Assembly (NCBI GenBank): GCA_944392105.1
Contig: CALXVM010000003.1
Span: forward strand, 40,735-104,734
Length of the DNA stretch: 64,000 bases
Source: an uncultured Clostridia bacterium
GTDB taxonomy: Bacteria; Bacillota; Clostridia; TANB77; CAG-508
Direction: 5' to 3'
Of the stretch, positions 36,925 to 52,562 are shown in pieces (position 1 is the stretch's first letter; the number at the start of each line of letters is the position of its first letter). Below the pieces are notes generated by a model. The model saw only the letters and a program-made list of their open reading frames with translations, searched no databases and had not been told where the DNA came from. The position numbers and the translations under genes are program-made.

Positions 36925-37461
36925 TCAATAGGTATTATTGCTTATGTCTATATTAAAATAATCTCCACCTCTTGCATCAAATTCTATATAAATATTGCTT
37001 TCTGTTTTAACTTTCCATAGAGCCATGTCACTTTCTATGTTGTTTTCGAATTCTATAGTTTTAATTTCTTCATTTTTAAATCCATATTCTTCTAATATAT
37101 TTTTTGCTTTTTTTATTGCGTCTTCTTCAGTTATAATATTACTTTGTATAATATTTTCTGTATCTTTTTTTTGCTCTTCTATATTATTGTATATGCTATG
37201 AGTTTTTTCTTCATTTTTTTCAATCTCAGCTACTTTTTCAGGTGCTTTTTTTATAACGCTATAAGTTTTAGTCCCTGCATAAACTATTCCTATAACCAAA
37301 ATTAAACATGCACATGTTGTTAATGCAATTTTAAAAAACGAATATTTCTTTTTTTTAACTTTTACACTTTCTATACTTTCTTTAATAACTGTTCTAACTT
37401 TAGTCGGTACTTCCTTTTCTTCTCCCAAGTCATGAAATAACTTTTTTTCTATATCATTCAT
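36925..37461 (-). CDS. anti-sigma-factor-like single-pass membrane protein with PepSY-like C-terminal domain
   Basis: Its start overlaps the ECF sigma stop (ATGA). It has a short cytoplasmic N-terminus, one TM, and an extracytoplasmic domain (ITEEDAIKKAKNILEEYGF...). Confidence 0.6.
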   Translation of the reverse strand: MNDIEKKLFHDLGEEKEVPTKVRTVIKESIESVKVKKKKYSFFKIALTTCACLILVIGIVYAGTKTYSVIKKAPEKVAEIEKNEEKTHSIYNNIEEQKKDTENIIQSNIITEEDAIKKAKNILEEYGFKNEEIKTIEFENNIESDMALWKVKTESNIYIEFDARGGDYFNIDISNNTY

Positions 37462-37988
37462 TAATAATTCTCCCCTTTTTCTATAATATTTTTGATTTTT
37501 TGAATTGCTCTTGTTCTTTTAGTTTTTACAGTATTTATTTTTAAATTTAGTACTTCTCCTATTTCTTTGTCTGTAAATCTGTTCATATAATATAAAATTA
37601 CTATAGTTCTATCCTCTTCTTTTAATTTATTGCTTATAAATTTAAAATCTAATTTTATATTGGATTTTTCAATACTACTATCATTTATGCTTTGAGCATT
37701 TGCTATTTCTTCAAACGGTATTAAGTTTCTTTTTTTATTTCTTTTATAAATTAAATTTGTTTCATTTATTAAAATTCTTATTAACCAAGTTTTAAAGTAC
37801 TGATTTTCCTTTAATTTTCCTATGTTTTTATAAGCTATAATAGTAGTTTCTTGTATTGCATCATATACGTCATCATCGTCTTTTAATCTAGATTTTGCAA
37901 TATAATATAATTCTCTTTCCACCATTAACATAAGTTTTGTAAAAGAATTTTTATCTCCATTTTTTGCTTTTTCTACTAATTCCTCCAT
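37461..37988 (-). CDS. ECF-type sigma-70 family sigma factor
   Basis: Region 2 (AIQETTIIAYKNIGKL...FKTWLIRILINE) and region 4 HTH (FTDKEIGEVLNLKINTVKTKRTRAIQKI). Confidence 0.85.
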   Translation of the reverse strand: MEELVEKAKNGDKNSFTKLMLMVERELYYIAKSRLKDDDDVYDAIQETTIIAYKNIGKLKENQYFKTWLIRILINETNLIYKRNKKRNLIPFEEIANAQSINDSSIEKSNIKLDFKFISNKLKEEDRTIVILYYMNRFTDKEIGEVLNLKINTVKTKRTRAIQKIKNIIEKGENY

Positions 37989-40164: not shown

Positions 40165-40909
40165 TTAATCATATAAGTTCTTATTTTCTATCTTTAATAT
40201 AACCGTATTTATTACAGTTTTTATATTCGGTTTTTGTATCTCATAATTGTTAAAATATTCTTTTATTGTATTTTCTTCGCAATTATAATACATAGCTTCT
40301 GTTGCTCGAATTACACTACTTTTAACGCTTCCTATTTTTATTATATTTTTTTGCAATTATGGGATATATATCTTTATTCATATTTACTATTACGTTAGAA
40401 TATTCTGTATAAACAATATATATAATGTCTTCTAAATATTGTGTTCCTTTATGCGAAAAATTATATCTTAAATAATGCAATTCACTTTGAATATTTAATT
40501 TTAATTTATTTTTCTTTTCAAAATAATTTTTTTCCAAAATTATTTTATCTATAGCGTTACATAATTCATATATTTCTGTCTGCTGTGATAATATAGTATA
40601 AATCATTTCATTTATTATATATTTTTTTTCAGCATAATCATTATATTTTAATTTTATTATAAGACTTTTTTTGTATTTTCGTCTTTTTTTTGGCATAATT
40701 TTATCTAAGTTTAAGGCAATATTGCGCAATGGCATTTTTAAATTTAATAATATTATGTCAATTTTTTCATCATTATTTAAAGTTCTTATAGCATCATTAA
40801 TGTCTGTTGATAGCTTAATTACTCTTATATCTTCCGAAATTCGATTTATCTGTGTCATTATTTCATTAGCTTCATAAATATTATCATCTATAATAAATAC
40901 ATTTACCAT
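40165..40909 (-). pseudogene. Spo0A-like regulator (degenerate receiver + Spo0A C-terminal domain) split by a frameshift
   Basis: ORF 40322..40909 ends ...HKGTQYLEDIIYIV...DIYPIIAKKYNKNRKR*. ORF 40165..40356 continues in another frame with ...SVKSSVIRATEAMYY...KPNIKTVINTV. Together they reproduce the Spo0A_C pattern. The frames switch in an A-rich run around 40322..40356. The receiver phospho-acceptor position reads LLNLKMP (Asn instead of Asp). Confidence 0.65.
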
Positions 40910-43029: not shown

Positions 43030-43203
43030 ACTATATAAACTATTTATTTTTCTTAATCTACAATCAATTCAATATTTTTACCCAAATTTATAGTCGGCAT
43101 AGTAATATACTCTTTTTATAGCCCACAACAAAAGTGGATTAAAGTGGAAAAATTTGACTTTATGTTACAATTTGGTATAATTATACATATTGGAGGGGAT
43201 TTG

Positions 43204-44229
43204 ATGAAGAGAAGTATTGTTATAGCAATTTCTATAATAATTTTATTTATACTCATTTTTGCAATAGTTTTAATTTTTATAGTAAAACACAAAGAAACTG
43301 CAGATACTCAAGAACCTGATACAAGTATAGTTTCACATTATAATAGTCCTGTTATTCCAGAAGGATTCCATTCAATTGATACAGAAACTGCAAAATGGAA
43401 TAAATTAGAAGATGGAACTATAGAGGGATGGAATTCAGGATTAGTAATAGAAGATAGTATTGGAAATCAATTTGTTTGGATTCCTGTCAACTTAGATTTT
43501 CCTGAAGACGCTGTTTATAGAACTGTAAATCAATATAAGAAAGATGAATTAGATATAAATAATATAGAAGATATGCAAATTATCAGATATGGAGGTTTTT
43601 ATATTTCCAGATATGAAGCTGGTGTACCTGATTCATTACAAGGCATAACTGATAATATTAGTGAAAAAACTAATGATATTCAAGGAATTCCAGTAAGCAA
43701 AAAAGGAATTATCCCTTGGAATTACATTAGTCTAAAAAATGCAAAGAAAAATGCTGAAAGTATGTATTCATCTCAACATTTAAGTAGTGGACTTCCAACA
43801 TTGAAACAAAGAGATTTTATTGCATTTTGGCTTTTATTATGTGGATACGATTTATATGATATATATGTTGATAGTTCCCCTATTGGTAATTATTCAAATG
43901 TAAATTTTGAGTTTACAGGTTATTATTCAGAGGATTATGGTAAAAGCTATAAATTTGGAGAAAATCATTTAAAAGCTGGCAGCAATATGATTTTATCTAC
44001 TGGTGCAACAGATAGAAATATGACCAATAATATATATGATTTAGCCGGAAATGTATGGGAGTATAGTAATAATTATTTTCCGCCAGATTCTCCAGATGAT
44101 ATTAAGGGATATATTTGCTATGGTGGTCATTTTGATAATATTGGTTCTTATAATTTATCTGCAGATGCTTTGAAAAACGTTGTTCCTCTTGAAAAAGTCG
44201 GATTTAGAATTGTGCTTTATCAGAAATAA
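43204..44229 (+). CDS. membrane-anchored FGE-sulfatase/SUMF1-like domain protein
   Basis: ATG 43204 behind GGAGGGG. An N-terminal TM, then GGFYISRYEAG, DLAGNVWEYS and a C-terminal VGFRIVLY. These match the family pattern of f-Y-I-x-k-y-E, G-N-V-W-E-W and G-F-R. Confidence 0.6.
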   Translation: MKRSIVIAISIIILFILIFAIVLIFIVKHKETADTQEPDTSIVSHYNSPVIPEGFHSIDTETAKWNKLEDGTIEGWNSGLVIEDSIGNQFVWIPVNLDFPEDAVYRTVNQYKKDELDINNIEDMQIIRYGGFYISRYEAGVPDSLQGITDNISEKTNDIQGIPVSKKGIIPWNYISLKNAKKNAESMYSSQHLSSGLPTLKQRDFIAFWLLLCGYDLYDIYVDSSPIGNYSNVNFEFTGYYSEDYGKSYKFGENHLKAGSNMILSTGATDRNMTNNIYDLAGNVWEYSNNYFPPDSPDDIKGYICYGGHFDNIGSYNLSADALKNVVPLEKVGFRIVLYQK

Positions 44230-44292
44230 AATATTTTATAGTTTGTGGAAGTACACTTAATATAAAAAATATATAATTAGGAGTAATTTTAC

Positions 44293-45012
44293 ATGAGTAC
44301 ATTAGTAATAGTAGATGACAACCTAGACTTTGTTATAAATTTATATAATCAAATAGTACAACTTCAAATACCTAAATTGCAAGTAACTTGTATAAATTCA
44401 AATGGTAAAGAAGCTATAAATACAATTATAAAATTAAAACCAGATATTGTTTTATTAGACTTATTTTTACAAGACATTAGTGGAATAGATGTATTAGATG
44501 AATTTATTAAACATAAAATAAACACTAAAATAATTGTTATGTCTGGTTATCCAGATTTAATTTATAAATGTCATGATAAAAAGTATTATAATTATATATA
44601 CAAAATATTAGCTAAGCCTTTTAATTATAAAGATTTATCTACTTTATTACAAACTTTATCTATTGAAAACAATTCTAAATTTTTAAGGACAGCTATTATT
44701 AACCAACTTAATTTGTTAAACTTCAGTCATAAATCTATTGGCTATAATTACTTAATAGACACTATTAGTTTAATTTTGGAAAGAAATTATAAGAGTTACA
44801 ACTTGGAAAAAGATATTTATGTACAATTATCTAAACAGTATAAAAATGTTAAAGCTTTTCAAATAAAGTGGAATATAGAAAAGCTAATACGAACGATGTA
44901 TAGAGACACTAATATACATACTTTGCACAACTTTTTTAACACTGATGAAGATACTAAACCAACTACAAAATTAATTATTAATACAGTTATAGACAAATGC
45001 ATAAACAGCTAA
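44293..45012 (+). CDS. Spo0A-like response regulator (intact receiver + Spo0A C-terminal DNA-binding domain)
   Basis: The receiver has DD (IVDDN), an acceptor Asp (VLLDLFL), Ser (IVMSG) and Lys (LAKPF). The C-terminus reads HKSIGYNYLIDTISL...IYVQLSKQYKNVKAFQIKWNIEKLIRTMY...KPTTKLIINTVIDK, matching the Spo0A_C pattern (GYxYLxxAI...YPxIAKKYxTTxSxVERAIRHAI...KPTNSEFI). Confidence 0.7.
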   Translation: MSTLVIVDDNLDFVINLYNQIVQLQIPKLQVTCINSNGKEAINTIIKLKPDIVLLDLFLQDISGIDVLDEFIKHKINTKIIVMSGYPDLIYKCHDKKYYNYIYKILAKPFNYKDLSTLLQTLSIENNSKFLRTAIINQLNLLNFSHKSIGYNYLIDTISLILERNYKSYNLEKDIYVQLSKQYKNVKAFQIKWNIEKLIRTMYRDTNIHTLHNFFNTDEDTKPTTKLIINTVIDKCINS

Positions 45013-45053: not shown

Positions 45054-45419
45054 TTATTTCACATGCTTATTTTCATAACTGCACACGATTGTATAAATAA
45101 TAAGCTTTAAGCTTGGTTTTAAATTTTCTGGCAACATAAAATATTTTGATATAATATCTATTGGTGTATTATTATACATTGTAGTAATACACTGCTCTAT
45201 GCACCATTTTATTGATAAATAAGATTTTTCATCATGCCTTTTTGCTATTATTGGAAAAACATTTCTTGTCAAATTATCTATAGCATTTTCATTTATTATG
45301 CATAAACATATGGCTTCTTTTAAATATTTATATCCTTTTGTTCCTCTTCTAAAATCAAATTTGCACAACTCGTTTTCTATGAATTGCTTGATGGCTTTTT
45401 CATTTGTGATTTTATTCAT
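45054..45419 (-). CDS. stand-alone Spo0A C-terminal-domain protein (no receiver)
   Basis: TKGYKYLKEAICLCI...NVFPIIAKRHDEKSYLSIKWCIEQCITTMY...KPSLKLIIYTIV. Its start overlaps the end of the GH25 gene by 8 nt. Confidence 0.65.
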   Translation of the reverse strand: MNKITNEKAIKQFIENELCKFDFRRGTKGYKYLKEAICLCIINENAIDNLTRNVFPIIAKRHDEKSYLSIKWCIEQCITTMYNNTPIDIISKYFMLPENLKPSLKLIIYTIVCSYENKHVK

Positions 45420-46191
45420 CCTTTGTACCTCCTTTAATTATCAATTTTGTGCCTATTTGTATTAAATCTGGATTATTTCCTATAACCTCTTTATTAGAAT
45501 TATAAATTTCTTGCCATGTTGTGTTGTACTTTCGTGCAATATATGTAAGATTATCTCCTGGCTGTACTATATAAACTATTTTATTTTCTATTATGTTATT
45601 AAGTAATTTGTCATTCATTAAATAATCAATATCTACATAGCCTTTTATACCATTTAATTGACCTTCGTGTGTAAATTGCCATATATCATACTTTCCGTTA
45701 TAATCACATTTATTAACTTCAGTTTGAGCAACCCAAATACTAAAGTCAGCAAATTTACTATCATCTAAATAATTTTTAAACCAATCTAAGTTTGCATAAA
45801 CTCCGGCTTTATACCCATTTTCTTTAATTATTTTCAAAAATTCTATACATAAATTTGTTAACTTTTCTTTGCCCTCCTGTAGCAACGTTGAGTCTTCCAT
45901 GTCAATGTAGATTGGTAGTTGTATTTTTTTATTTTTCATTTTGTTGACAACCCATTTTGCTCCTTCTATAATGGAATCTATATTATTGCAATAATTATAA
46001 ACATATATCCCAATATTCATATTTTGTTTGGTACACTCTTTATAATTTCTACTAAATTTGCTATCTACATAATTAGGTTCATCATCATATATATTTCCTA
46101 ATTTCAATATTGCAAATTTCACATTTGCCTGCTTTACTTCTTCCCACTGTATATTTCCTTGATTTCCACTTACATCGATTCCAATAACCAT
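45412..46191 (-). CDS. GH25 muramidase with C-terminal LysM domain (endolysin-like, no signal peptide)
   Basis: The N-terminus MVIGIDVSGNQGNIQWEEVK...FAILKLG is typical of GH25. The C-terminus YIVQPGDNLTYIARKYNTTWQEIYNSN...IQIGTKLII is LysM. Confidence 0.8.
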   Translation of the reverse strand: MVIGIDVSGNQGNIQWEEVKQANVKFAILKLGNIYDDEPNYVDSKFSRNYKECTKQNMNIGIYVYNYCNNIDSIIEGAKWVVNKMKNKKIQLPIYIDMEDSTLLQEGKEKLTNLCIEFLKIIKENGYKAGVYANLDWFKNYLDDSKFADFSIWVAQTEVNKCDYNGKYDIWQFTHEGQLNGIKGYVDIDYLMNDKLLNNIIENKIVYIVQPGDNLTYIARKYNTTWQEIYNSNKEVIGNNPDLIQIGTKLIIKGGTKDE

Positions 46192-46416
46192 TTTATAATC
46201 CCTCCTTTAATATATTCTCTATATACTTCCTCACTAATTTGCTTTTTTACGAAGTAATATTCTAAAATTATTATATTTATTTTTTTAAATATTTTTTATT
46301 AAGTGGTTTAATATAGATTTTTATGGTAAAAATAACTTTTTTATCTACATTCAACTACTTTATCTTCAATAGAACTTCATTTAAGTTATTATTATAAATG
46401 AAAGGAGGTGTTAAAT

Positions 46417-46953
46417 ATGGCTTCACCTTATTTAGTTGTAAACGCATCAAATAAATATTATGACATTTATGACATGAATACTGGAAAGAAAATGGCTTTA
46501 TTGTATCCACGAGAAGCTTTCATAATCATAGACAATGAAGGAGTAATATGGAATATAAAAATTAGAAACTCTGCTGGAAAAATTGTTAATGTTGTAGTAC
46601 ATGATAAAGAAAACTTCATTGGAGATAATTGTAAACCTTGTTATTTCTTCCCTTATGGAAAGAAAGTTATTGATGGTCGTGAATATGAAACTTATTTGAT
46701 GCGTAAGGCAAAAAACATTTATACTCCTTCTGCCGATTACTGGGGAGGAGTAGCTCAGAATATGTTAGTTGCAAGTAATAATGATATAGTTGGAGAAACA
46801 CATTCAACTTGGAAAGCAATAGACTATGTTAAACGTAGCACTGATGGTAAATGGGTTAAAGTATCTGGTCAAGGATATGATTATGGTTTTGTAGAAACTG
46901 GTCTAGAGGACGGTTCTATGTATTACAATATTCCATTTTATGGTTCTTGGTAA
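46417..46953 (+). CDS. hypothetical 178-aa protein, no signal peptide
   Basis: ATG 46417 behind AAAGGAGG. Followed by a strong terminator. W/Y/G-rich, with no TM and no recognised family. Confidence 0.5.
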   Translation: MASPYLVVNASNKYYDIYDMNTGKKMALLYPREAFIIIDNEGVIWNIKIRNSAGKIVNVVVHDKENFIGDNCKPCYFFPYGKKVIDGREYETYLMRKAKNIYTPSADYWGGVAQNMLVASNNDIVGETHSTWKAIDYVKRSTDGKWVKVSGQGYDYGFVETGLEDGSMYYNIPFYGSW

Positions 46954-46965
46954 ACTCGAAACAGA

Positions 46966-46997
46966 AAAAAACAGAGGAAAAGTTCCTCTGTTTTTTT
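46966..46997. terminator. bidirectional terminator AAAAACAGAGGAAAAGTTCCTCTGTTTTTTT
   Basis: 7-bp GC-containing stem with an A-run and a T-run. A near-identical hairpin recurs at 47918..47949. Confidence 0.7.
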
Positions 46998-47017
46998 GCC
47001 TACTATTATATATTTTT

Positions 47018-47269
47018 TTAATCTTGTACTATCTCCTTAAAATTCCATGCTTCTCCACCATTTATTTCATTTAAATGATTCGCTGTAAATGAAAAATCCC
47101 CAGGAACCTCTATCCAATCCCTTCCATTAGTAGTTATATACAAATCGCTTTCTTCAAATTTGTAAGACATATTCTTTTCATTATGTGAGTTTATATAATA
47201 TAAAATTAAAACTATTGACATTAATATAATAATTATGACTATACTGATTATAATTATTCTTTTTTTCAT
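47018..47269 (-). CDS. truncated paralog of 47304..47819 (N-terminal TM + first ~50 aa of ectodomain)
   Basis: MSYKFEESDLYITTNGRDWIEVPGDFSFTANHLNEINGG aligns with MNYKFEEEKLYITINGKEWMEVPYDFSITANHLKEANNG. Confidence 0.45.
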   Translation of the reverse strand: MKKRIIIISIVIIIILMSIVLILYYINSHNEKNMSYKFEESDLYITTNGRDWIEVPGDFSFTANHLNEINGGEAWNFKEIVQD

Positions 47270-47303
47270 TCTCTCTCCTCTTCTAATACTTCAATCTGTT
47301 AAC

Positions 47304-47819
47304 TCAATACCATTCGCTCCCCCCATTTTTAGTTATTGCAGTATATTTATTTCCATCTAATCCTTTTAATACTATTTCTCCATGTTGTCTATCTTTGAAA
47401 TATATCTTATCTATAACGTCTAAATAGTTTTTAGTTGTTATATGATAACTATTCCATGTTTTTCCTCTATCATCCGAACATATTAATATAATAGCATATT
47501 TGCCACCAGTATACATTTGATAAGTTTCATCTGTTTCTACCTCACTATAAAATACAATTTTACTTTTGTCCATTTGATATGTGCCTTCTCTATATCTTCC
47601 ATTATTTGCTTCTTTTAGGTGATTCGCTGTAATAGAAAAATCATATGGCACTTCCATCCATTCTTTTCCATTTATAGTTATATATAACTTTTCCTCTTCA
47701 AATTTATAATTCATATTTTTGTCATTATTAATAATTAGATAATATACTAATATAGCTATTACAATTAAAATTATGAATACTATAAAGAATATTATTTTTT
47801 TCTTTTTCATAGATTCCAT
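47304..47819 (-). CDS. membrane-anchored protein with a BNR/Asp-box motif
   Basis: An N-terminal TM. CSDDRGKTW fits the SxDxGxTW Asp-box. Confidence 0.5.
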   Translation of the reverse strand: MESMKKKKIIFFIVFIILIVIAILVYYLIINNDKNMNYKFEEEKLYITINGKEWMEVPYDFSITANHLKEANNGRYREGTYQMDKSKIVFYSEVETDETYQMYTGGKYAIILICSDDRGKTWNSYHITTKNYLDVIDKIYFKDRQHGEIVLKGLDGNKYTAITKNGGSEWY

Positions 47820-47917
47820 CTCCTATTGAAATTATATATTTGTTATTATTATAAGTCAATATAAACTTAGAGTTTAAGTTAAACGAATAAAATATTTAAT
47901 CTATTTTTACATCTAAG

Positions 47918-47949
47918 AAAAAACAGAGGAAAATTTTCCTCTGTTTTTT
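47918..47949. terminator. second copy of the ACAGAGG/CCTCTGT terminator hairpin
   Basis: AAAAAACAGAGGAAAATTTTCCTCTGTTTTTT. Confidence 0.65.
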
Positions 47950-47973
47950 ATCAAGTACTTCTAATATAACATA

Positions 47974-48223
47974 TCACTCAGTCTTTTTTAGTATAATTAT
48001 AATTTAACAGCATAGATAACAAAGCTAAATAAAATACCAATAAAATTATACTAATAAAAAAATGAAACCTGACATATTTTTATTTTCTGTCATATATAAA
48101 TTCGATGCACTATCTATTTTTACATTTTCGTTTTTTAAATATTTTATTTCATATTGTTGGAAATAAATGATATCAAAATCACTTACTATATCTGTCCATC
48201 TATTTGTCTTTAGAAATAATATT
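47974..48223 (-). pseudogene. 5'-deleted copy of the 42014..42436 membrane-protein gene
   Basis: The DNA aligns with 42014..~42270, including the stop position. The part carrying the start codon and first TM is missing, with the junction near 48223. No ORF of 60 aa or more is listed here. Confidence 0.6.
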
Positions 48224-48321
48224 TGTCTAAAATATATCTTATGTTATTTTTATAATCCTGTATAACAATAATACTTGTTGTTTTTCTCATTAATAAAAAA
48301 ACAGATAAATTTGATAAATAA

Positions 48322-48696
48322 CTATTCCATTTTTGGTATAATCTTATATTTTATTATAAATATACTAAATAGTAATATTATAAAATATGGTAATGAACAC
48401 TTTATAAAAGCTTCTCCTTTTCCATTACGTTCTCTTACAGTTTCAGGAGATACATTTATTTCCGTACTTTTATAAAACAAGCTTGGAAAATATTGCATAA
48501 TTTTAACTTCATTATTTTCCATTCTATAATCAGTTTTCAAAGTAATTATACTAAAATTTCCTATACTATAAACACTATCATAATATAAGTATATTGTAAG
48601 CAGTGCCTGAAATATTCTAATAATTGCTATGCTAATCACTAAGACTGTAATAATTAAAAAAATAATATGTTGTATTTTTTTTATATTTTTCATCAA
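48322..48696 (-). CDS. hypothetical two-TM membrane protein (paralog of 42563..42985)
   Basis: 124 aa, lying immediately downstream of the 782-aa hydrolase gene on the same strand. Confidence 0.5.
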   Translation of the reverse strand: MMKNIKKIQHIIFLIITVLVISIAIIRIFQALLTIYLYYDSVYSIGNFSIITLKTDYRMENNEVKIMQYFPSLFYKSTEINVSPETVRERNGKGEAFIKCSLPYFIILLFSIFIIKYKIIPKME

Positions 48697-48747
48697 TTTA
48701 GTCTAAACCTTTCTCTAAACCAATTTCTTATTATATATTACTATTTA

Positions 48748-51096
48748 TTATACCATAGAACTTATTTTTTTTGCAAACGCTTTAGCAACATTTTCCAATA
48801 GCACTGGCATTGTAGCTGGCTTTTCAGTAATTACAATTTCGAATGCAGTTGCTGCTAATCCCTCTAAATCTGTTATTTTAATATTTAAATAACTTCTTGC
48901 AACCTTATATGCTTTATTATATATTGAATCACTTTTCTGAATATCTCCTGGCATATTTCCATATTGTTCTCTGTTATTAATAAAGCCCTCTCCTCTTCCA
49001 ATGATTATATCATTATAATAAGAACTAAATACCATATCTATTCTTATATTATTTAAACTTTTATATAACATCCAAACATCAATATCTTGTAGCAAATCTT
49101 CTAAATCAAATCCCAAATTGCTTGCTGCATCTGTATTATCTCCTAAAATCTGTTCTATAAATTCCTCTGAAAGACTAGGATAATCACCATTTTTATATTT
49201 TTCTTCATAACTACCGGCAAATTGTATTAAGTCGCCAGCCCAACCAGTCAAGTCTACAATAATAGAATCTACCGAAGCAACTCCTGTCCTATTATTCAAT
49301 ACTAAATACATTGATGCACATAAGTGTGATAAAGTAATCAGTTTATTATAGCCACCTACATATATTGGTAAGTCACGTCTATCTTTAGAAATATTATTAT
49401 TTATATAGTTTATTCCATTCATATCATATTCTAACAATAAATTCCATTCAATAGAATTATAATTTTTATAGGCAATGTATTGTATAACTAATGAATTGTT
49501 TTCCTTTATAGTAGCAGAATTACCATGATATGCAGCTGCTAATTCATAAGCTTCTTTCAAGAAATTTATAATTTCTTCATTTTCTTGAGATAATGATATA
49601 TTTTTATTTAAACTTGATATTGGTTCTATCTCTCCTCTATATGTTACTTTATCTATATCTAATTCATTTTCAAAATTAGTTATTTCTTTAAATTGATCAT
49701 AATTCCAGTTCTGTGGCATTTTTTGGCCTATGTTGCAAGAATATCCTGATGACATGTCCGCTACAAAACTACTTTCTGCTAATCCAGCTTCAGAAACTCT
49801 TTGGCAAACTAATCGTGGTCCATATATTCCTACTTTATATCTATTTCCTATACCTTCATTTATTCCTTTAAAAAATTCTACAATATAATCCTCTATTTGG
49901 TCTTCATATACATCCAAATCAACAGCAAAATATATAACTGTCTCATCAGGAATTAGATTAGTTATCGCTGCTTCTCTCGCTCTTTGCCCAGATTTTTTTC
50001 CTTTTGCATAACTAAAATCTGTAATCTGTCTATTGTTTTCTTGATAAATCGGAAAAACTTTTAATCCTGAATTCAATATAGTCTCAATTTCTCCAAATTG
50101 TAGTGCTTTAGGCTTTTCTTCACTAATATATCCCGTTAAATATCTTCCTACAACTTCGAAACCATTTTCTTTTAGCAATCTAGCCCTATCTTCTGTTATT
50201 TCAAAACAAGTATCACATGCATTTGCTGCCCTCGACGTATCTCCGCAACTTACAGCTAAAGCAAACCAAGTTTGAGGTCCTACACTTCCATCAACTTCTA
50301 AATGCATTAATTCCTGAAATTGCATAACAGCATTTCTTGCTCCATTCCCAAAGCTTCCATCAAATCCATTAGGGTCAAATCCATTTAAAAATAATAAATA
50401 TTGTAATAAATAAATTAAGTCTGTATTACTAGACCCAATAGTCAATGCTGGTAAAGCATTTTTGGTTGCATCTCCCCATGAACCATCTATATCTACTCCT
50501 ATTTCATATTGAACAGCCATTTTTATTACTTTATTTGTATTTCTATCATATAATCCATTAGTAGCTAAATAATCTCCCATCATACTTAAATATTTTCTAT
50601 TCAACGCTTGTTGTATTTCTCTAACTTTAATGTTATATTCATTATCAATAGTTGTATATGCATCTGTAGTCAAAATAGCTTTCATATCTATTGCTCTTAC
50701 TATTCCATCAGGATTTTCTAATCCTAATTGCGTTTTCATTGTAATTATTCCTTCTTCTGTAGTATCTGAAAACAATTCCAAATTGTTCCAATCTCCAGCA
50801 ATACCTCTACAAAATAATCCTCCATTAACAATAACATTTATATTTTTTTGCTGCTGCGTATCTGCTATTATATTCTTAGACAACCCATTTGGATATAATG
50901 AATTAAATGCTGATTTCGTTCCAGGTCCAAAAGAACCATCTACATCTAATCCTAACTCTATTTGTAATGCTCTGATCAATCCTGCTACTGTTTTTATTCC
51001 TGTTTCTCCATCTGTTTCTACCTGTACCCAATTTTTATTTCCAAAATATGTTGTATTCATCCATCTCTGTACTTCTAACACTTTCTGATCTGCCAT
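48748..51096 (-). CDS. large peptidoglycan hydrolase-like protein: PG-binding repeats + DUF1906 (Rv2525c-like glycoside-hydrolase-like) domain + unknown C-terminal domain; no signal peptide
   Basis: Three PG_binding_1-type repeats (LQIELGLDVDGSFGPGTKSAF; IGVDIDGSWGDATKNAL; DGSFGNGARNAVMQFQELMHLEVDGSVGPQTWFAL). These are followed by ITEDRARLLKENGFEVVGRYLTG...IYFAVDLD...VGIYG, typical of DUF1906. The ~290-aa C-terminal region is unassigned. Confidence 0.7.
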   Translation of the reverse strand: MADQKVLEVQRWMNTTYFGNKNWVQVETDGETGIKTVAGLIRALQIELGLDVDGSFGPGTKSAFNSLYPNGLSKNIIADTQQQKNINVIVNGGLFCRGIAGDWNNLELFSDTTEEGIITMKTQLGLENPDGIVRAIDMKAILTTDAYTTIDNEYNIKVREIQQALNRKYLSMMGDYLATNGLYDRNTNKVIKMAVQYEIGVDIDGSWGDATKNALPALTIGSSNTDLIYLLQYLLFLNGFDPNGFDGSFGNGARNAVMQFQELMHLEVDGSVGPQTWFALAVSCGDTSRAANACDTCFEITEDRARLLKENGFEVVGRYLTGYISEEKPKALQFGEIETILNSGLKVFPIYQENNRQITDFSYAKGKKSGQRAREAAITNLIPDETVIYFAVDLDVYEDQIEDYIVEFFKGINEGIGNRYKVGIYGPRLVCQRVSEAGLAESSFVADMSSGYSCNIGQKMPQNWNYDQFKEITNFENELDIDKVTYRGEIEPISSLNKNISLSQENEEIINFLKEAYELAAAYHGNSATIKENNSLVIQYIAYKNYNSIEWNLLLEYDMNGINYINNNISKDRRDLPIYVGGYNKLITLSHLCASMYLVLNNRTGVASVDSIIVDLTGWAGDLIQFAGSYEEKYKNGDYPSLSEEFIEQILGDNTDAASNLGFDLEDLLQDIDVWMLYKSLNNIRIDMVFSSYYNDIIIGRGEGFINNREQYGNMPGDIQKSDSIYNKAYKVARSYLNIKITDLEGLAATAFEIVITEKPATMPVLLENVAKAFAKKISSMV

Positions 51097-51200
51097 AAAA
51101 CAACCTTCTTTCTAAATTTTTTACTTATAATTAGCGCTAACTTCTATAAGTTATTAATATTATAGAAAATATTATCTTATTTTTTCTAAAAAGTGGTGTT

Positions 51201-51677
51201 TTATATATTTTTGAGGTATATTCTTTTTATTTTATTCAATGCATCACGCAAGCTATACTGTATGTTCCTTATTGAACACTGCTCTATATTAGCTATTTCT
51301 TTTTCTTTTAAATTAAGAAAATAGTGTAAATATATTCTTTTTTTCTGCTTATATGTTAGTTTATTTATTGCACTATTTAGTTTTTCTATTTCTATATTAT
51401 AAATAGCCAAATCTTCAATAATAATATTAATCTTAAAAGCCTTTTTATATAGCTCATTTTCTTTTATTCTTTTATGCTCAATATGTCTGTCATACTCATT
51501 CATTATCTTTTTATCTTCTAATTCGAACTTATTCATCTCTTCATATATTTGTTTGCTAATTTTTACTTTATTATATTCTAAGTTTATATTTTTAAATTTT
51601 ACAAAATATTCATTATTATTAATTTCTAAATAGTATGGATTATATTTGTCTCTTCTTCTCTTTGGTTTTTCTTCCAT
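51201..51677 (-). CDS. small sigma-70 region-4-like transcription regulator of the mobile-element type
   Basis: Start MEEKPKRRRDKYNPYYLE at ATG 51677 behind GAGGTG. The C-terminus LTYKQKKRIYLHYFLNLKEKEIANIEQCSIRNIQYSLRDALNKI is a sigma region-4 HTH. The N-terminal KRRRDKxNPY...FELEDKK pattern recalls small sigma-like proteins of Firmicute transposons and ICEs (from memory). Confidence 0.6.
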   Translation of the reverse strand: MEEKPKRRRDKYNPYYLEINNNEYFVKFKNINLEYNKVKISKQIYEEMNKFELEDKKIMNEYDRHIEHKRIKENELYKKAFKINIIIEDLAIYNIEIEKLNSAINKLTYKQKKRIYLHYFLNLKEKEIANIEQCSIRNIQYSLRDALNKIKRIYLKNI

Positions 51678-51683
51678 AAAATA

Positions 51684-51728
51684 CACCTCATCTTAAATTT
51701 TTTGAACTTTAAAATTTAAAATGAGGTG
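51684..51728 (-). promoter_or_regulatory. long hairpin sequestering the Shine-Dalgarno of the sigma-like gene (or terminator of the holin transcript)
   Basis: The arms 51684..51701 and 51711..51728 pair at 17 of 18 positions. The 3' arm on the minus strand contains the GAGGTG SD, 6 nt before ATG 51677. Confidence 0.5.
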
Positions 51729-51920
51729 GTGCTCTTATTTCTATATAAAAAAATAAACTTATATACTTTATTGTATTACAAAGTATAAAGTTTATCTTTT
51801 CTAAAAAATCTTTGGTTCAATTATAACTCCAATCATAAAAAATATTTTTATGATTATATAAAAAGGAACTTGCAAAATCCCACGAAATTTGTCGAATTTT
51901 ACCAAGATATGTATTTTTTT

Positions 51921-52397
51921 CTATTCTTTTGTATTATTATCTGAATTACTTTTATTTTCTATTAATTCATTATATTTTTCTAACCCTTTAACTAAAAAGT
52001 TTGGTATTTTTATTCCTATATCTATTAAATTTTCTAAAATGCTCCTTGCTTCATTTATTATTAAACATGCTAATGTAAACCATCCAAAAAACATTATAAA
52101 ATCTATATTTAGGTTAATTTTCTGTCCAATCTGAGTAAGTAAATAAGAAATTAAAAAAGTTAAACATATTAAAATCCAATAGGAAACTTTTTTTATTATT
52201 CCTATCAATCCTTTACTTGAGCTTTCGGTGCTATTTACTTTGGCTTTTATAACTCCTGTTACATAATCAAGAATATTTAATATTAAGTAGCCAGCAAACA
52301 ACAGCCATTCTATTCCAAACGTAACATTTAAATAGGTTATTATAGCACTTATTATATTTCCTATTCTATTAAATATTTTAAAAAATTCTTCTTTCAT
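51921..52397 (-). CDS. holin, toxin-secretion/phage-lysis (TcdE / phage_holin_4_1-like) family
   Basis: Start MKEEFFKIF. Three hydrophobic segments. It has the ILDYVTGVIKA...SSKGLIGIIKKV motif typical of this holin family and a charged C-terminal tail. Confidence 0.7.
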   Translation of the reverse strand: MKEEFFKIFNRIGNIISAIITYLNVTFGIEWLLFAGYLILNILDYVTGVIKAKVNSTESSSKGLIGIIKKVSYWILICLTFLISYLLTQIGQKINLNIDFIMFFGWFTLACLIINEARSILENLIDIGIKIPNFLVKGLEKYNELIENKSNSDNNTKE

Positions 52398-52410
52398 TTC
52401 TATCACATCC

Positions 52411-52445
52411 TAGAAATATTATAATAATTAATTATAATATTTCTA
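52411..52445. promoter_or_regulatory. 35-bp palindrome (14-bp perfect arms) overlapping TATAAT boxes just upstream of the holin gene
   Basis: TAGAAATATTATAA-TAATTAA-TTATAATATTTCTA. The arms are at 52411..52424 and 52432..52445. It is a candidate operator or promoter. Confidence 0.4.
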
Positions 52446-52562
52446 AAAAAATAGATTTTTATTGTCTTTTATAGAAATATTTGTTTAACCCTTGAATTTT
52501 TTAATAGAATAAAATGGCGTATTATTCCTCTTTTAAAGAACTAAAAGAGAAGAAGTGCAGTA

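Follow-up and report, generated by a model that had tools for sequence, protein, structure and literature searches.

A candidate Bac41-like, holin-associated bacteriolysin or polymorphic-toxin locus on the chromosome of an uncultured Clostridia bacterium

What is the function of a holin gene that lies beside a gene for a large, signal-less wall-binding protein on a clostridial chromosome? The question arises from a first-pass annotation of a 64,000-nucleotide stretch of DNA from an uncultured gut Clostridia bacterium (here called the window), which described consecutive genes for a holin, a small sigma-like protein, a 782-aa hydrolase and a small membrane protein as a candidate holin-dependent export or lysis cassette. 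All four open reading frames are present on the minus strand where that annotation placed them, but the conserved cluster is larger (about 45054-52406) and also encodes a leaderless GH25-LysM lysozyme, a regulator consisting of a Spo0A_C domain only and a conserved 181-aa protein (Table 1). The cluster genes co-occur in at least 10 related loci of other species, so the arrangement is not due to chance, and their order is shuffled between species. Our best reading is a bacteriolysin or polymorphic-toxin locus of the Bac41 kind that is associated with a holin. We consider it probable, though far from certain, that the locus, at about 45.0-52.4 kb of the window, is a chromosomally encoded relative of the Bac41 system and acts as an antibacterial, envelope-targeting weapon built from leaderless proteins. 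This reading is based on the gene content, the homology of the large protein to BacA and of the holin to its Bac41 counterpart, the lack of signal peptides, the synteny and the near-absence of the family from phages.

The locus lies within a region of low GC content (0.21-0.27 over roughly 34-53 kb, versus about 0.33 in neighboring housekeeping stretches), and the remaining genes of the window are housekeeping genes (LeuRS, AspRS, AdhE, NrdD, PknB, MurT, AddB). An intrinsic terminator marks its upstream boundary. On the other side, the genes for a membrane-anchored protein and a Spo0A-like response regulator (43144..45012) are conserved in two related loci and may or may not belong to the functional unit. 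One other strain of the species has truncated or split versions of the sigma-like gene and the 181-aa gene, which counts against the Bac41-like reading. When the neighboring genes were scanned with Pfam and PHROG, no structural phage match emerged, in agreement with the earlier remark that virion genes are absent, and the window contains no virion, terminase, integrase or conjugation genes; no prophage is present.

Table 1. Features of the locus and its flanks (positions in the window).
Feature	Position	Strand	Basis or remark
Flanking 361-aa membrane-anchored protein	43144-44229	+	Homologues in L001, L095
Flanking Spo0A-like response regulator	44293-45012	+	Homologues in L001, L095; Pfam and NCBIfam
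Stand-alone Spo0A_C DNA-binding protein, 121 aa	45054..45419	-	PF08769, E 3e-11
Leaderless GH25 muramidase with LysM, 259 aa	45412..46191	-	PF01183, E 4e-29; LysM, E 4e-11
Soluble leaderless protein, 181 aa	46408..46953	+	Conserved alongside BacA-family genes
Truncated tandem paralogue of the 171-aa protein, 83 aa	47018..47269	-	
171-aa protein, N-terminal membrane anchor and soluble domain	47304..47819	-	One TM segment at 12-30
Small two-TM membrane protein	48322..48696	-	Hydrophobic segments 11-29 and 97-115; directly downstream of effector gene
Leaderless effector, 782 aa, BacA/YbfG/YkuG family	48748..51096	-	Homology to BacA; 876 homologues
C-terminal YkzU domain, residues 486-782	48751..49641	-	PF27189; TelC-like all-alpha fold in AF2 model
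Rv2525c-like (DUF1906) glycoside-hydrolase-like barrel, residues about 290-485	49642..50229	-	PF08924
PG-binding repeats, residues 1-284	50245..51096	-	One canonical PG_binding_1, two degenerate copies
Sigma-70 region-4-only regulator, 158 aa	51201..51677	-	PF08281 (Sigma70_r4_2), E 1.7e-7
Hairpin with 18-nt arms	51684..51728	-	Arms 94% complementary; GAGGTG ribosome-binding site of sigma-like gene pairs with upstream CACCTC
TcdE/Phage_holin_4_1 holin, 158 aa from ATG at 52397	51921..52397/52406	-	PF05105, TIGR01593; alternative GTG at 52406
Perfect 15-nt inverted repeat	52411..52445		TAGAAATATTATAAT-N5-ATTATAATATTTCTA; directly upstream of holin start
Intrinsic terminator	52548..52578	-	14-bp stem followed by T run; ends upstream 103-aa gene

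Over residues 3-496 the 782-aa protein matches the studied member of its family, the accessory Bac41 effector BacA (E 2e-85), and a 783-aa protein of an Enterococcus plasmid (WP_000344083.1) is homologous to it over residues 3-709. The absence of a signal peptide was borne out, since no hydrophobic segment was found anywhere along the protein, and it is a family-wide trait (65 of 66 BacA/YbfG/YkuG members have no N-terminal hydrophobic segment). The three peptidoglycan-binding repeats reported earlier are roughly right: one is a canonical PG_binding_1 domain (residues 222-284), but the other two (about 1-70 and 153-221) are degenerate and retain only the DGxxGxxT motif. The barrel was matched by Pfam at residues 308-468 (Rv2525c_GlyHyd-like, E 3e-41), and its invariant acidic residues in an alignment of 40 sequences include D295, D393, D395, and D482. 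Peptidoglycan-degrading activity was not detected for BacA (bioRxiv 10.1101/2020.11.20.391417).

The C-terminal domain of about 297 aa had been called unknown, and it indeed found no match in our local copy of Pfam, but precomputed annotations of homologues place family PF27189 (YkzU) here. Invariant residues of the domain are Y517, Y546, H591, GWAGDL (618-623), D667, D671, D673, YY (693-694), and R701. Modeling of the region, as the first-pass annotation had suggested, gave a confident AF2 prediction (pLDDT 89.4), for which the top PDB match in Foldseek was TelC (5ukh, probability 0.77; next best ≤0.21). A second, independent model, of an Rhs-linked YkzU member (pLDDT 89.7), matched the same structure with a probability of 1.00 and a TM-score of 0.45 (next best ≤0.04), so that TelC, an LXG/T7SS toxin of Streptococcus intermedius with the immunity protein TipC, is the sole meaningful structural match of two models. 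TM-scores to TelC range from 0.30 to 0.45 across the YkzU models, and at the sequence level no similarity between the two emerged when a profile was searched against the PDB. The YkzU model consists of two alpha-helical lobes and a single beta-hairpin, with a D-x3-D-x-D motif that is invariant in the family; the all-alpha TelC likewise has two helical lobes, a single beta-hairpin and a conserved Asp-rich motif (PMC5555719).

Our analysis thus shows that YkzU has a TelC-like fold and that Rhs and further extracytoplasmic proteins carry it as their C-terminal module. In Rhs proteins it comes after the DPxG that ends the core, and elsewhere it is preceded by Sec, lipoprotein or pilin-like signals or by choline-binding repeats; all inspected architectures bear an export signal, a cell-surface module or a toxin-delivery module, as expected for an enzyme at the outer face of the membrane. 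[quoted passage not shown] The fold and the occurrence of the domain at the end of Rhs proteins support the earlier suggestion of a C-terminal toxin module, and on the strength of the models we regard YkzU as a candidate Ca2+-dependent lipid II or undecaprenyl-pyrophosphate phosphatase toxin. Unlike TelC, however, the window encodes no LXG domain, WXG partners or T7SS genes, and delivery would instead depend on the peptidoglycan-binding repeats, the GH25-like barrel and the holin.

The holin identity of the first gene was confirmed by Pfam (PF05105, Phage_holin_4_1, E 2.2e-28), by NCBIfam TIGR01593 "toxin secretion/phage lysis holin" (61.8 bits, cut-off 40.2) and by a PHROG holin family (E 4e-17); the protein has 3-4 hydrophobic segments and is homologous to a holin inside the Bac41 locus of Enterococcus faecalis (E 7e-11). 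Phage_holin_4_1 genes lie beside family members in 12 loci and BhlA holin genes in five. Because two unrelated holin families adjoin family members, we read the proposed link between hydrolase and holin as functional. However, a recognizable holin is found near only about 12 of 80 genome loci, and mostly none at family loci outside Clostridia. The GH25-LysM protein has no hydrophobic segment and matches GH25 lysozymes in the PDB (E 3e-15). Its gene is co-located with that of the effector in seven loci and replaced by an M23 peptidase gene in two others (L083 and L098), making it a candidate lysin partner and functional analogue of BacL1.

A holin of this family together with a GH25-LysM enzyme is typical of phage lysis, and the genes could therefore serve a mobile element (a degenerate prophage or ICE) as its cassette for lysis or autolysis, in which the holin and two hydrolases break open their own host, for example to set free element DNA, public goods or eDNA. 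In that case the 782-aa protein would act as an endolysin and not as a weapon against other cells. Its match to phrog_15213 (E 2e-137), a relative adjoining ERF and Gp3-like genes, and the overlap of holin and M23 peptidase genes in L083 and L098, in the style of a phage lysis pair, fit this scenario. We nevertheless think it unlikely, as the family occurs in just 3 of 50,697 phage records and the window lacks virion, terminase and integrase genes. Moreover, the TelC-like domain common to Rhs toxins serves no obvious need of an endolysin, an endolysin does not require the conserved downstream membrane protein, and the sole studied homologue, BacA, is a bacteriocin component.

The closest known system, which the first-pass annotation did not name, is the Enterococcus bacteriolysin Bac41 (bacL1-bacL2-[holin]-[ORF]-bacA-bacI; pYI14 and relatives), whose secreted effectors are BacL1 and BacA, with BacL2 as activator and BacI, encoded downstream of bacA, as the immunity factor (bioRxiv 10.1101/2020.11.20.391417; PMC11808071). 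In the RefSeq annotation, the E. faecalis gene order is lysin, bacL2, holin, ORF, 726-aa GH-domain protein, 4-TM protein. Both systems share the N-terminal 500 aa with peptidoglycan-binding and Rv2525c-like parts, leaderless effectors, a homologous holin within the locus, a separate lysin gene followed by a small regulator gene and a small membrane protein encoded directly 3' of the BacA-like gene, and relatives of the window locus are carried by mobile elements. They differ in that BacA ends in a Ybfg_C domain with a hydrophobic helix, unrelated to YkzU, so that Bac41 is no simple guide to function. In addition, BacL1 combines lysozyme, Amidase_5 and SH3_5 domains whereas the window has GH25-LysM (and its relatives M23), region-4-only sigma-like and Spo0A_C proteins take the place of BacL2, and the locus is chromosomal in an uncultured Clostridia bacterium. 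No sequence similarity was found between the lysin, regulator and putative immunity proteins of the window and BacL1, BacL2, and BacI.

The small protein encoded by the fourth gene does have the two TM segments ascribed to it, and its homologues occupy the same position in three related loci. More generally, 23 of 56 family loci have a small protein (≤260 aa, one or more TM segments) encoded within 300 nt downstream. The two-TM protein is dissimilar in sequence to BacI, yet is a candidate immunity protein and positional analogue of it. The 171-aa protein, which is restricted to the species of the window and gave no family match above threshold, has a topology as in TipC and might, speculatively, be a second one; both candidates are thus membrane-anchored, a further likeness to TelC. 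Bacillus subtilis YbfG and YkuG/YkzU, the last of which gave the Pfam domain its name, belong to the same family with the same architecture, and the membrane-protein gene ybfF shares a putative operon (ybfGFE) with ybfG; loss of ybfF leads to beta-lactam sensitivity. Unlike the window, the B. subtilis group has no holin or sigma-like gene beside its copies in the loci fetched.

The parallel drawn earlier with clostridial toxin loci holds for the shared logic of UviA-UviB-Bcn5 and large-clostridial-toxin loci, namely a sigma-like regulator, a holin, a leaderless effector and an endolysin-type enzyme (PMC9527704), and a Clostridium perfringens BacA-family gene lies directly behind genes for a UviA-like sigma factor and a BhlA/UviB holin. 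It does not extend to the effectors, as Bcn5 (M14-like and SH3b) and the glucosylating toxins are unrelated to the 782-aa protein, nor to the regulator. The latter is a sigma region-4 protein, as annotated, but no region 2 was detected by Pfam or NCBIfam, 355 homologues of about 157 aa likewise have region 4 only, and the window protein shows no similarity to the UviA-like protein encoded next to the C. perfringens family member. Its family sits at the ends of mobile elements, one member adjoining DUF3789 and a large serine recombinase. A TcdR/UviA-type sigma factor was therefore rejected. Orthologues are found at the equivalent position in three related loci, and Sigma70_r4 is the commonest upstream neighbor of family genes (14 of 72 ORFs from 41 loci). 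The start of the Spo0A_C gene overlaps the 3' end of the lysin gene; it follows the lysin gene in five related loci and adjoins the holin gene instead in three.

Holin-dependent, non-lytic secretion in clostridia has been reviewed (PMC9527704), and the first-pass annotation proposed a type 10-like system; in such a system, holin and hydrolase would open the envelope non-lytically for other cargo encoded nearby. As in the type 10 systems of Serratia and Salmonella, which export chitinases or typhoid toxin, a holin is paired here with signal-less wall hydrolases. The 181-aa protein, leaderless and conserved, could be counted as cargo; homologues of it adjoin a BacA-like gene at 11 or more loci, among them those of Robertmurraya, Lacrimispora and a C. 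argentinense plasmid, and it has no Pfam, NCBIfam, PHROG or PDB match. Domain scans of the locus and its neighbors, however, found no toxin- or chitinase-like cargo, the organism is Gram-positive, neither a spanin nor an endopeptidase like those of Serratia and Salmonella is present, and it is the large protein that looks like an effector, with wall-binding repeats and a polymorphic, toxin-like C-terminal domain. We thus consider this type of export very unlikely and Bac41 the closer model, the 782-aa protein itself being the likely cargo and effector.

Members of the family are carried by 563 plasmids, 157 of them conjugative, and several close relatives of the locus have conjugation genes around them (T4SS coupling protein, PcfJ, ArdC-N, primase, T4SS_pilin), which allows for a role for the element itself. 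Hydrolases released by the holin might accordingly open the thick Gram-positive wall for a mating channel or DNA entry, with the chromosomal copy in the window as a remnant, and the occurrence of the sigma-like family at mobile-element ends agrees with this. A wall-remodeling role in conjugation is quite unlikely in our estimate: 222 of the plasmids are non-mobilizable, some being merely 5-10 kb, the window has no conjugation genes and YkzU also ends Rhs proteins. Known conjugation hydrolases such as CwlT, PrgK, and TcpG have signal or TM segments and different domains. Three Spo0A-related genes within 5 kb, a PG_binding_1 domain similar to that of SleB and the influence of YbfF on beta-lactam tolerance might instead point to a housekeeping or developmental autolysin (e.g., for mother-cell lysis or germination) under Spo0A-like control. 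This we regard as highly improbable, since low GC content, shuffled gene order, plasmid or ICE carriage and decay in some strains are typical of accessory competition genes and not of core development.

For a Bac41-like weapon we infer the following course of export, killing, enzymatic reaction and immunity, and of the action of the regulators. The region-4-only sigma-like activator, the Spo0A_C-type regulator or both would turn the genes on, after which the TcdE-family holin would open the cytoplasmic membrane and let the folded, signal-less effector and the GH25-LysM muramidase exit, either non-lytically or through lysis of a subpopulation. The effector would dock on the wall of a target cell through its peptidoglycan-binding repeats, and the muramidase, possibly with the Rv2525c-like barrel of the effector, would open that wall. 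At the outer face of the membrane the TelC-like domain could then hydrolyze lipid II or undecaprenyl pyrophosphate, blocking wall synthesis and causing lysis, while at least one small membrane protein encoded just downstream would shield the producer.

Two DNA elements may contribute to the control of the locus. The inverted repeat upstream of the holin start is a candidate operator or promoter element; exact 12-mer copies within the window occur only there and at 49386, and a pair of related half-sites precedes the 782-aa gene (51160-51191). The hairpin preceding the sigma-like gene, which includes its ribosome-binding site, possibly exerts translational control.

The first-pass annotation had described four minus-strand genes as a holin-dependent, type 10-like export or lysis cassette, and all four ORFs were recovered at their annotated positions. 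The first encodes a holin of the TcdE/Phage_holin_4_1 type, as had been proposed (PF05105, E 2.2e-28; TIGR01593 over cut-off), with 3–4 hydrophobic segments. The 782-aa protein, here called the effector, carries the three annotated peptidoglycan (PG)-binding repeats, of which one is a canonical PG_binding_1 repeat and the other two are degenerate, and the predicted Rv2525c-like (DUF1906) domain at residues 308–468. It has no signal peptide, with zero hydrophobic stretches along the whole chain. The fourth gene product (124 aa) contains two transmembrane segments. We consider that these genes and their neighbors probably form a Bac41-like, holin-associated bacteriolysin or polymorphic-toxin locus.

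The window copy of the locus is chromosomal and lies in a low-GC stretch, and the remaining genes of the window are chromosomal housekeeping genes (LeuRS, AspRS, AdhE, NrdD, PknB, MurT, DinB, AddB). An intrinsic terminator sets the cluster apart from leuS and an unrelated 103-aa gene. The latter, located between leuS and the holin gene, has its own strong terminator and is visibly G+C-richer than the AT-rich cassette; it matched no family and has homologues in the same species only. Pfam and PHROG scans of the neighboring genes agreed with the annotated lack of virion genes, and terminase and integrase genes were also absent. Among the ORFs scanned in the 64-kb window we found no virion, packaging or integration genes, which argues against the lysis module of a complete prophage and against a self-lysis cassette of a mobile element. 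As the effector family also occurs in only 3 of 50,697 phage records (tblastn), with a match reaching beyond the PG-binding repeats in only one of these, a self-lysis function is rather unlikely.

Features of the locus and its surroundings (positions in the window)
Feature	Position	Strand	Remarks
Degenerate receiver + Spo0A_C gene	40322-40909		
Full response regulator + Spo0A_C gene	44293-45012		
Spo0A_C-only gene	45054-45419		start overlaps end of muramidase gene
GH25-LysM muramidase gene	45412-46191		leaderless product
181-aa protein gene	46408-46953	+	soluble product
Truncated paralogue (83 aa)	47018-47269		
Paralogue	47304-47819		
Two-TM protein gene	48322-48696	-	
Effector gene (782 aa)	48748-51096	-	
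Inverted pair TAGAAAA...TTTTCTA	51160-51191		looser; upstream of effector gene
Sigma-like gene	51201-51677	-	gene start at 51677
Hairpin, 18-nt arms, 94% complementary	51684-51728		ribosome-binding site GAGGTG of sigma-like gene pairs with upstream CACCTC
Holin gene	51921-52397	-	
Perfect 15-nt inverted repeat TAGAAATATTATAAT-N5-ATTATAATATTTCTA	52411-52445		just upstream of holin start
Third half-site	52467-52481		~25 nt further upstream of holin inverted repeat
Intrinsic terminator	52548-52578		
103-aa gene	52563-52874		

With PG_binding_1 repeats followed by the Rv2525c-like barrel in a protein of ~700–800 aa, the effector belongs to the BacA/YbfG/YkuG family (Pfam). A search of 5.8 billion proteins identified 876 homologues of the same architecture. 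The ~100 closest are collinear over their full length and carry at the C-terminus the precomputed Pfam family PF27189, named "YkzU" (context look-up); the ~297 C-terminal residues of the window protein had no match in our local Pfam copy. The family is widespread in Bacillota and Actinomycetota, with relatives in Clostridia, Bacillus, Lactobacillales, Bifidobacteriaceae, Actinomyces and Streptomyces (scan, one genome per species). Hundreds of plasmids also carry it (563 by tblastn, 384 from Enterococcus and 71 from Lactiplantibacillus), some of them only 5–10 kb in size. Leaderlessness is a trait of the family, as 65 of the 66 full-length members from loci in other genomes or strains (L001–L080) have no N-terminal hydrophobic segment. 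The extreme N-terminus is conserved as M-x-x-x-V-L-x-x-Q-x-W-(L/M/V)-N-x-T-Y, a pattern present in the window protein, which starts MADQKVLEVQRWMNTTY. When over-extended ORF starts are allowed for, MDxMVLxxQxWLNxTY is found at or within a few residues of Met1 in 66 members, from Clostridia to Streptomyces, and this N-terminus may itself act as a signal for export or recognition. The Rv2525c-like domain did not align significantly with the GH25 enzyme of the window, a comparison made to map catalytic residues. Kinship with the C. perfringens bacteriocin BCN5 was rejected, as tblastn against plasmids gave no C. perfringens bcn match; Bcn5 consists of M14-like and SH3b domains (PMC9527704). Relatives show signs of decay, such as a BacA-like gene broken into two ORFs in L006 (9956-12326).

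For the locus in which one class of the E. faecalis plasmid matches falls, the RefSeq annotation lists, in order, a peptidoglycan amidohydrolase (595 aa), bacL2, a phage holin family protein, a hypothetical protein, a glycoside hydrolase domain protein (726 aa) and another hypothetical protein. This locus is the Bac41 bacteriolysin determinant; the two ORF lengths agree with those we take to be the lengths of BacL1 (595 aa) and BacA (726 aa). Similarity of the window effector to BacA is extensive (E 2e-85 over residues 3–496, phmmer), and the window holin matches the Bac41 holin (E 7e-11), which is likewise a Phage_holin_4_1 protein encoded inside the locus. Two secreted effectors, the endopeptidase BacL1 and BacA, jointly lyse E. 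faecalis, with BacL2 as transcriptional activator and BacI as immunity factor, encoded downstream of bacA; the activity of BacA itself has been called "undefined" (bioRxiv 10.1101/2020.11.20.391417; PMC7476776; PMC11808071). True homology between the two loci is, however, limited to the N-terminal module of BacA and the holin. BacL1 comprises Phage_lysozyme, Amidase_5 and SH3_5 domains, whereas the window lysin comprises GH25 and LysM, and phmmer gave no match to BacL1. Sequence similarity of BacL2 and BacI to window proteins was not found either, so that the regulator gene after the lysin gene and the transmembrane protein gene after the BacA-like gene are positional and topological analogues only. 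The C-terminus of BacA is a Ybfg_C domain (PF21015) with a hydrophobic helix, in contrast to the YkzU domain of the window protein, and the two are unrelated by hhalign. The YkzU part of the window protein recurs in a 783-aa protein encoded on an Enterococcus plasmid (WP_000344083.1), and the C-terminus of a C. perfringens homologue is of a third kind. The family therefore combines constant N-terminal 500 residues with exchangeable C-termini.

Structure prediction was applied to this C-terminal domain, for which the first-pass annotation had proposed AlphaFold on residues ~490–782 and a possible role as toxin or targeting module. From an alignment of 27 sequences, residues 486–782 gave a confident AF2 model (pLDDT 89.4, pTM 0.87) that is all-alpha with one beta-hairpin. 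The top PDB match in Foldseek was TelC of Streptococcus intermedius (5ukh; probability 0.77, E 0.077, TM 0.30), with the next-best match at a probability of 0.21. A second AF2 model, built independently for an Rhs-linked member 21% identical to the window domain (pLDDT 89.7, pTM 0.90), also had TelC as top match (probability 1.00, E 0.013, TM 0.45/0.41; next match 0.04). TelC has been described as a fold not seen before, with two alpha-helical lobes and one beta-hairpin; Ca2+ sits in the groove between the lobes, bound by a conserved aspartate-rich motif. The enzyme cleaves both lipid II and C55-PP and is toxic only when placed outside the cell, with D401A as control variant (PMC5555719). The YkzU domain is predicted to adopt this fold, with modest TM-scores, and the toxin proposal fits both this prediction and the finding that the same domain ends Rhs proteins. 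Residues invariant in all architectures are Y517, Y546, H591, GWAGDL (618–623), D667-x3-D671-x-D673, YY (693–694) and R701. YkzU and TelC may share ancestry, and the aspartate motif may be equivalent to the TelC metal site (D401); at the sequence level, a profile search against PDB sequences did not link the two. TelC carries an N-terminal LXG domain and uses type VII export, whereas the window protein has no LXG domain (Pfam), and T7SS genes were not detected among the window ORFs scanned.

In a set of 1.84 billion proteins, the YkzU profile recovered 1,459 representatives of varied architecture. The domain ends an RHS-repeat protein and directly follows the ...DPFG end of Rhs cores; it also occurs behind choline-binding repeats, ricin lectins and VWA/TSP3 modules, behind pilin-like, lipoprotein or Sec signals, and in the arrangement signal, YkzU, repeat region and membrane anchor. 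Since each architecture inspected includes either a signal for export or a module for the cell surface or for toxin delivery, YkzU appears to be extracytoplasmic and a polymorphic-toxin warhead. A tblastn search of plasmids with the Rhs-linked domain returned BacA-like genes only.

Two related loci in other genomes (L081 and L095) show the order holin, sigma region 4 protein, effector, small membrane protein, 180-aa protein (opposite strand), GH25/LysM and Spo0A_C, identical in order and strands to the window except for the position of the ~180-aa gene in L095. The annotated four genes are thus kept together in close relatives, but these have more than four genes in common. Gene order is shuffled in L003, L006 and L015, and in L083 and L098 the end of the holin gene overlaps the gene of an M23 peptidase, which takes the place of GH25-LysM. 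In the latter two loci DUF5697 replaces the sigma-like gene directly upstream of the effector. Among same-strand upstream neighbors of family genes (72 ORFs, 41 loci), Sigma70_r4 proteins were the commonest (14), with four BhlA holins and three Amidase_3 proteins. Two unrelated holin families are found near family members, with Phage_holin_4_1 represented at 12 or more loci and BhlA at 5 or more, and a holin lies near a family member in only ~12 of 80 genome loci. A C. perfringens locus (L033) encodes a UviA-like sigma factor, a BhlA/UviB holin, a BacA-family protein and a membrane protein; it follows the same logic as the window locus and is built from non-homologous parts. Several relatives (L081, L083, L097, L098) are situated among genes of conjugation and establishment, namely those for a T4SS coupling protein, PcfJ, ArdC-N, primase, T4SS_pilin and integrase, a context in which the effector could serve wall remodelling for conjugation. 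Mobility genes were not found near the window locus, and we consider this function improbable.

The sigma-like protein (158 aa) matches sigma-70 region 4, as annotated, and region 2 was not detected; its 355 homologues of ~157 aa likewise have region 4 only. Kinship with the TcdR/UviA/BotR/TetR group of sigma factors (regions 2 and 4, ~180 aa) did not hold up, given region 4 only and a BLASTP E of 0.41 to the UviA-like protein of L033. No similarity was found between the window protein and the L033 sigma factor, and BacL2 and DUF5697 were rejected as homologues of the sigma-like or Spo0A_C protein for the same reason. A widespread member of the sigma-like family is found where a mobile element ends, next to DUF3789 and a large serine recombinase, in agreement with the conjugation-gene context of several relatives. 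Three Spo0A-related genes lie within 5 kb in the window. Stand-alone Spo0A_C genes follow the lysin gene in most related loci that have one, much as bacL2 follows bacL1 in Bac41, and lie beside the holin gene in L003, L004 and L006. The hairpin at the start of the sigma-like gene suggests translational control of this regulator, and the inverted repeats at the holin and effector genes may form a shared operator. The motif TAGAAATATTAT had 12 matches in the window at ≤1 mismatch versus 5.3 expected, which is only suggestive. A scan for sigma-70-like promoters gave 66 sites versus 64.9 in shuffled sequence and was informative for the terminator only.

The 181-aa protein belongs to a ~180-aa family whose genes lie beside BacA-like genes in 11 or more loci, among them Robertmurraya, Lacrimispora and a C. 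argentinense plasmid (examples L028:9366-9932, L088:4975-5475, L074:13847-14356). Of the accessory genes next to the BacA family, it is the one whose similarity stays recognizable in the largest number of loci, in both Clostridia and Bacilli. The 181-aa, two-TM and 171-aa proteins had no Pfam, NCBIfam, PHROG or PDB match, and a final homologue search turned up just one protein, which was near-identical. In another strain of the window's species (L087; 2421-2789 and 7144-7680) the sigma-like gene encodes only 122 aa and two ORFs stand in place of the 181-aa gene, so that an intact or active locus cannot be assumed in every strain. At 23 of 56 loci, Streptomyces and Bacillus among them, the family gene is followed within 300 nt by a gene for a transmembrane protein (≤260 aa, ≥1 TM segment). 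Two tandem paralogues with an N-terminal anchor, seen in this species only, are inserted between the effector/two-TM pair and the rest of the conserved cluster, in a pattern that resembles arrays of immunity-gene paralogues. In B. subtilis, tolerance of beta-lactams requires the membrane protein YbfF, whose gene shares the putative operon ybfGFE with ybfG (2026 preprint, which draws no connection to Bac41). By analogy with bacA-bacI, YbfF could partner YbfG in an immunity-like role (B. subtilis ybfGFE; L034, L035, L044, L046).

For the Bac41-like reading, we infer the steps that go beyond sequence, synteny and predicted fold. The regulators would turn on the holin, effector and muramidase genes, and the holin would release the two folded, signal-less proteins, either non-lytically or by lysis of some cells. 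The PG-binding repeats would dock the effector onto target walls, the muramidase and/or the Rv2525c-like barrel would open the wall, and the TelC-like domain would destroy lipid II or undecaprenyl pyrophosphate at the outer leaflet. Downstream membrane proteins would protect the producer, the candidates being the two-TM protein and possibly the larger paralogue (171 aa, TipC-like topology) and its truncated copy. A toxin that is harmless in the cytoplasm and lethal outside fits a leaderless protein awaiting a holin. The locus would in this way work like Bac41 and like clostridial sigma-holin-toxin/bacteriocin loci (PMC9527704). It was rejected as a member of the loci with a TcdR-type regulator, of prophage lysis modules and of LXG/T7SS delivery systems. 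The originally proposed type 10-like export of another cargo agrees with the presence of a holin and leaderless hydrolases, but a distinct signal-less cargo was not identified, and we regard this alternative as distinctly improbable. A developmental autolysin is less probable still.

More tentatively, and with rather less than even confidence, the whole BacA/YbfG/YkuG family can be proposed to consist of leaderless polymorphic toxins with a constant wall-binding and wall-opening N-module and an exchangeable warhead, exported in Clostridia by holins instead of Sec or T7SS, and in which YkzU is a TelC-type lipid II phosphatase. If true, this would explain the long "undefined" killing role of BacA-like proteins and define holin-dependent interbacterial toxin delivery in parallel to the LXG/T7SS and Rhs systems. 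In the literature searched we found no paper that links BacA/YbfG/YkuG or YkzU to TelC or treats the family as polymorphic toxins. The gene cluster itself appears to be a recognizable bacteriocin-type locus; what would be new is its TelC-like warhead, together with a leaderless, holin-linked design shared by the whole family. Of this very large and unexplained family, which takes in the plasmid-borne proteins, B. subtilis YbfG/YkuG and members in many gut and soil bacteria, Bac41 alone has been studied. An exchangeable C-terminus, one common version of which has the predicted fold of a lipid II-destroying toxin and is used by Rhs proteins, offers a testable killing mechanism. To our knowledge, clostridia lack Tat, and the locus is a clean natural case for asking whether holins export large folded antibacterial proteins in this group. 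Reviews have proposed such export; the literature searched cites direct evidence only for large clostridial toxins, whose secretion depends on TcdE in C. difficile and, for TpeL, on TpeE in C. perfringens. Protein toxins that attack lipid II and carry their own wall-binding modules hold interest as narrow-spectrum antimicrobials and for the study of competition in gut communities.

The same low-GC stretch contains a further gene pair (36925-37988), unrelated to the locus as far as seen. The stop codon of an ECF-type sigma gene (regions 2 and 4) overlaps the start of a 178-aa gene, whose product could be the cognate anti-sigma factor.
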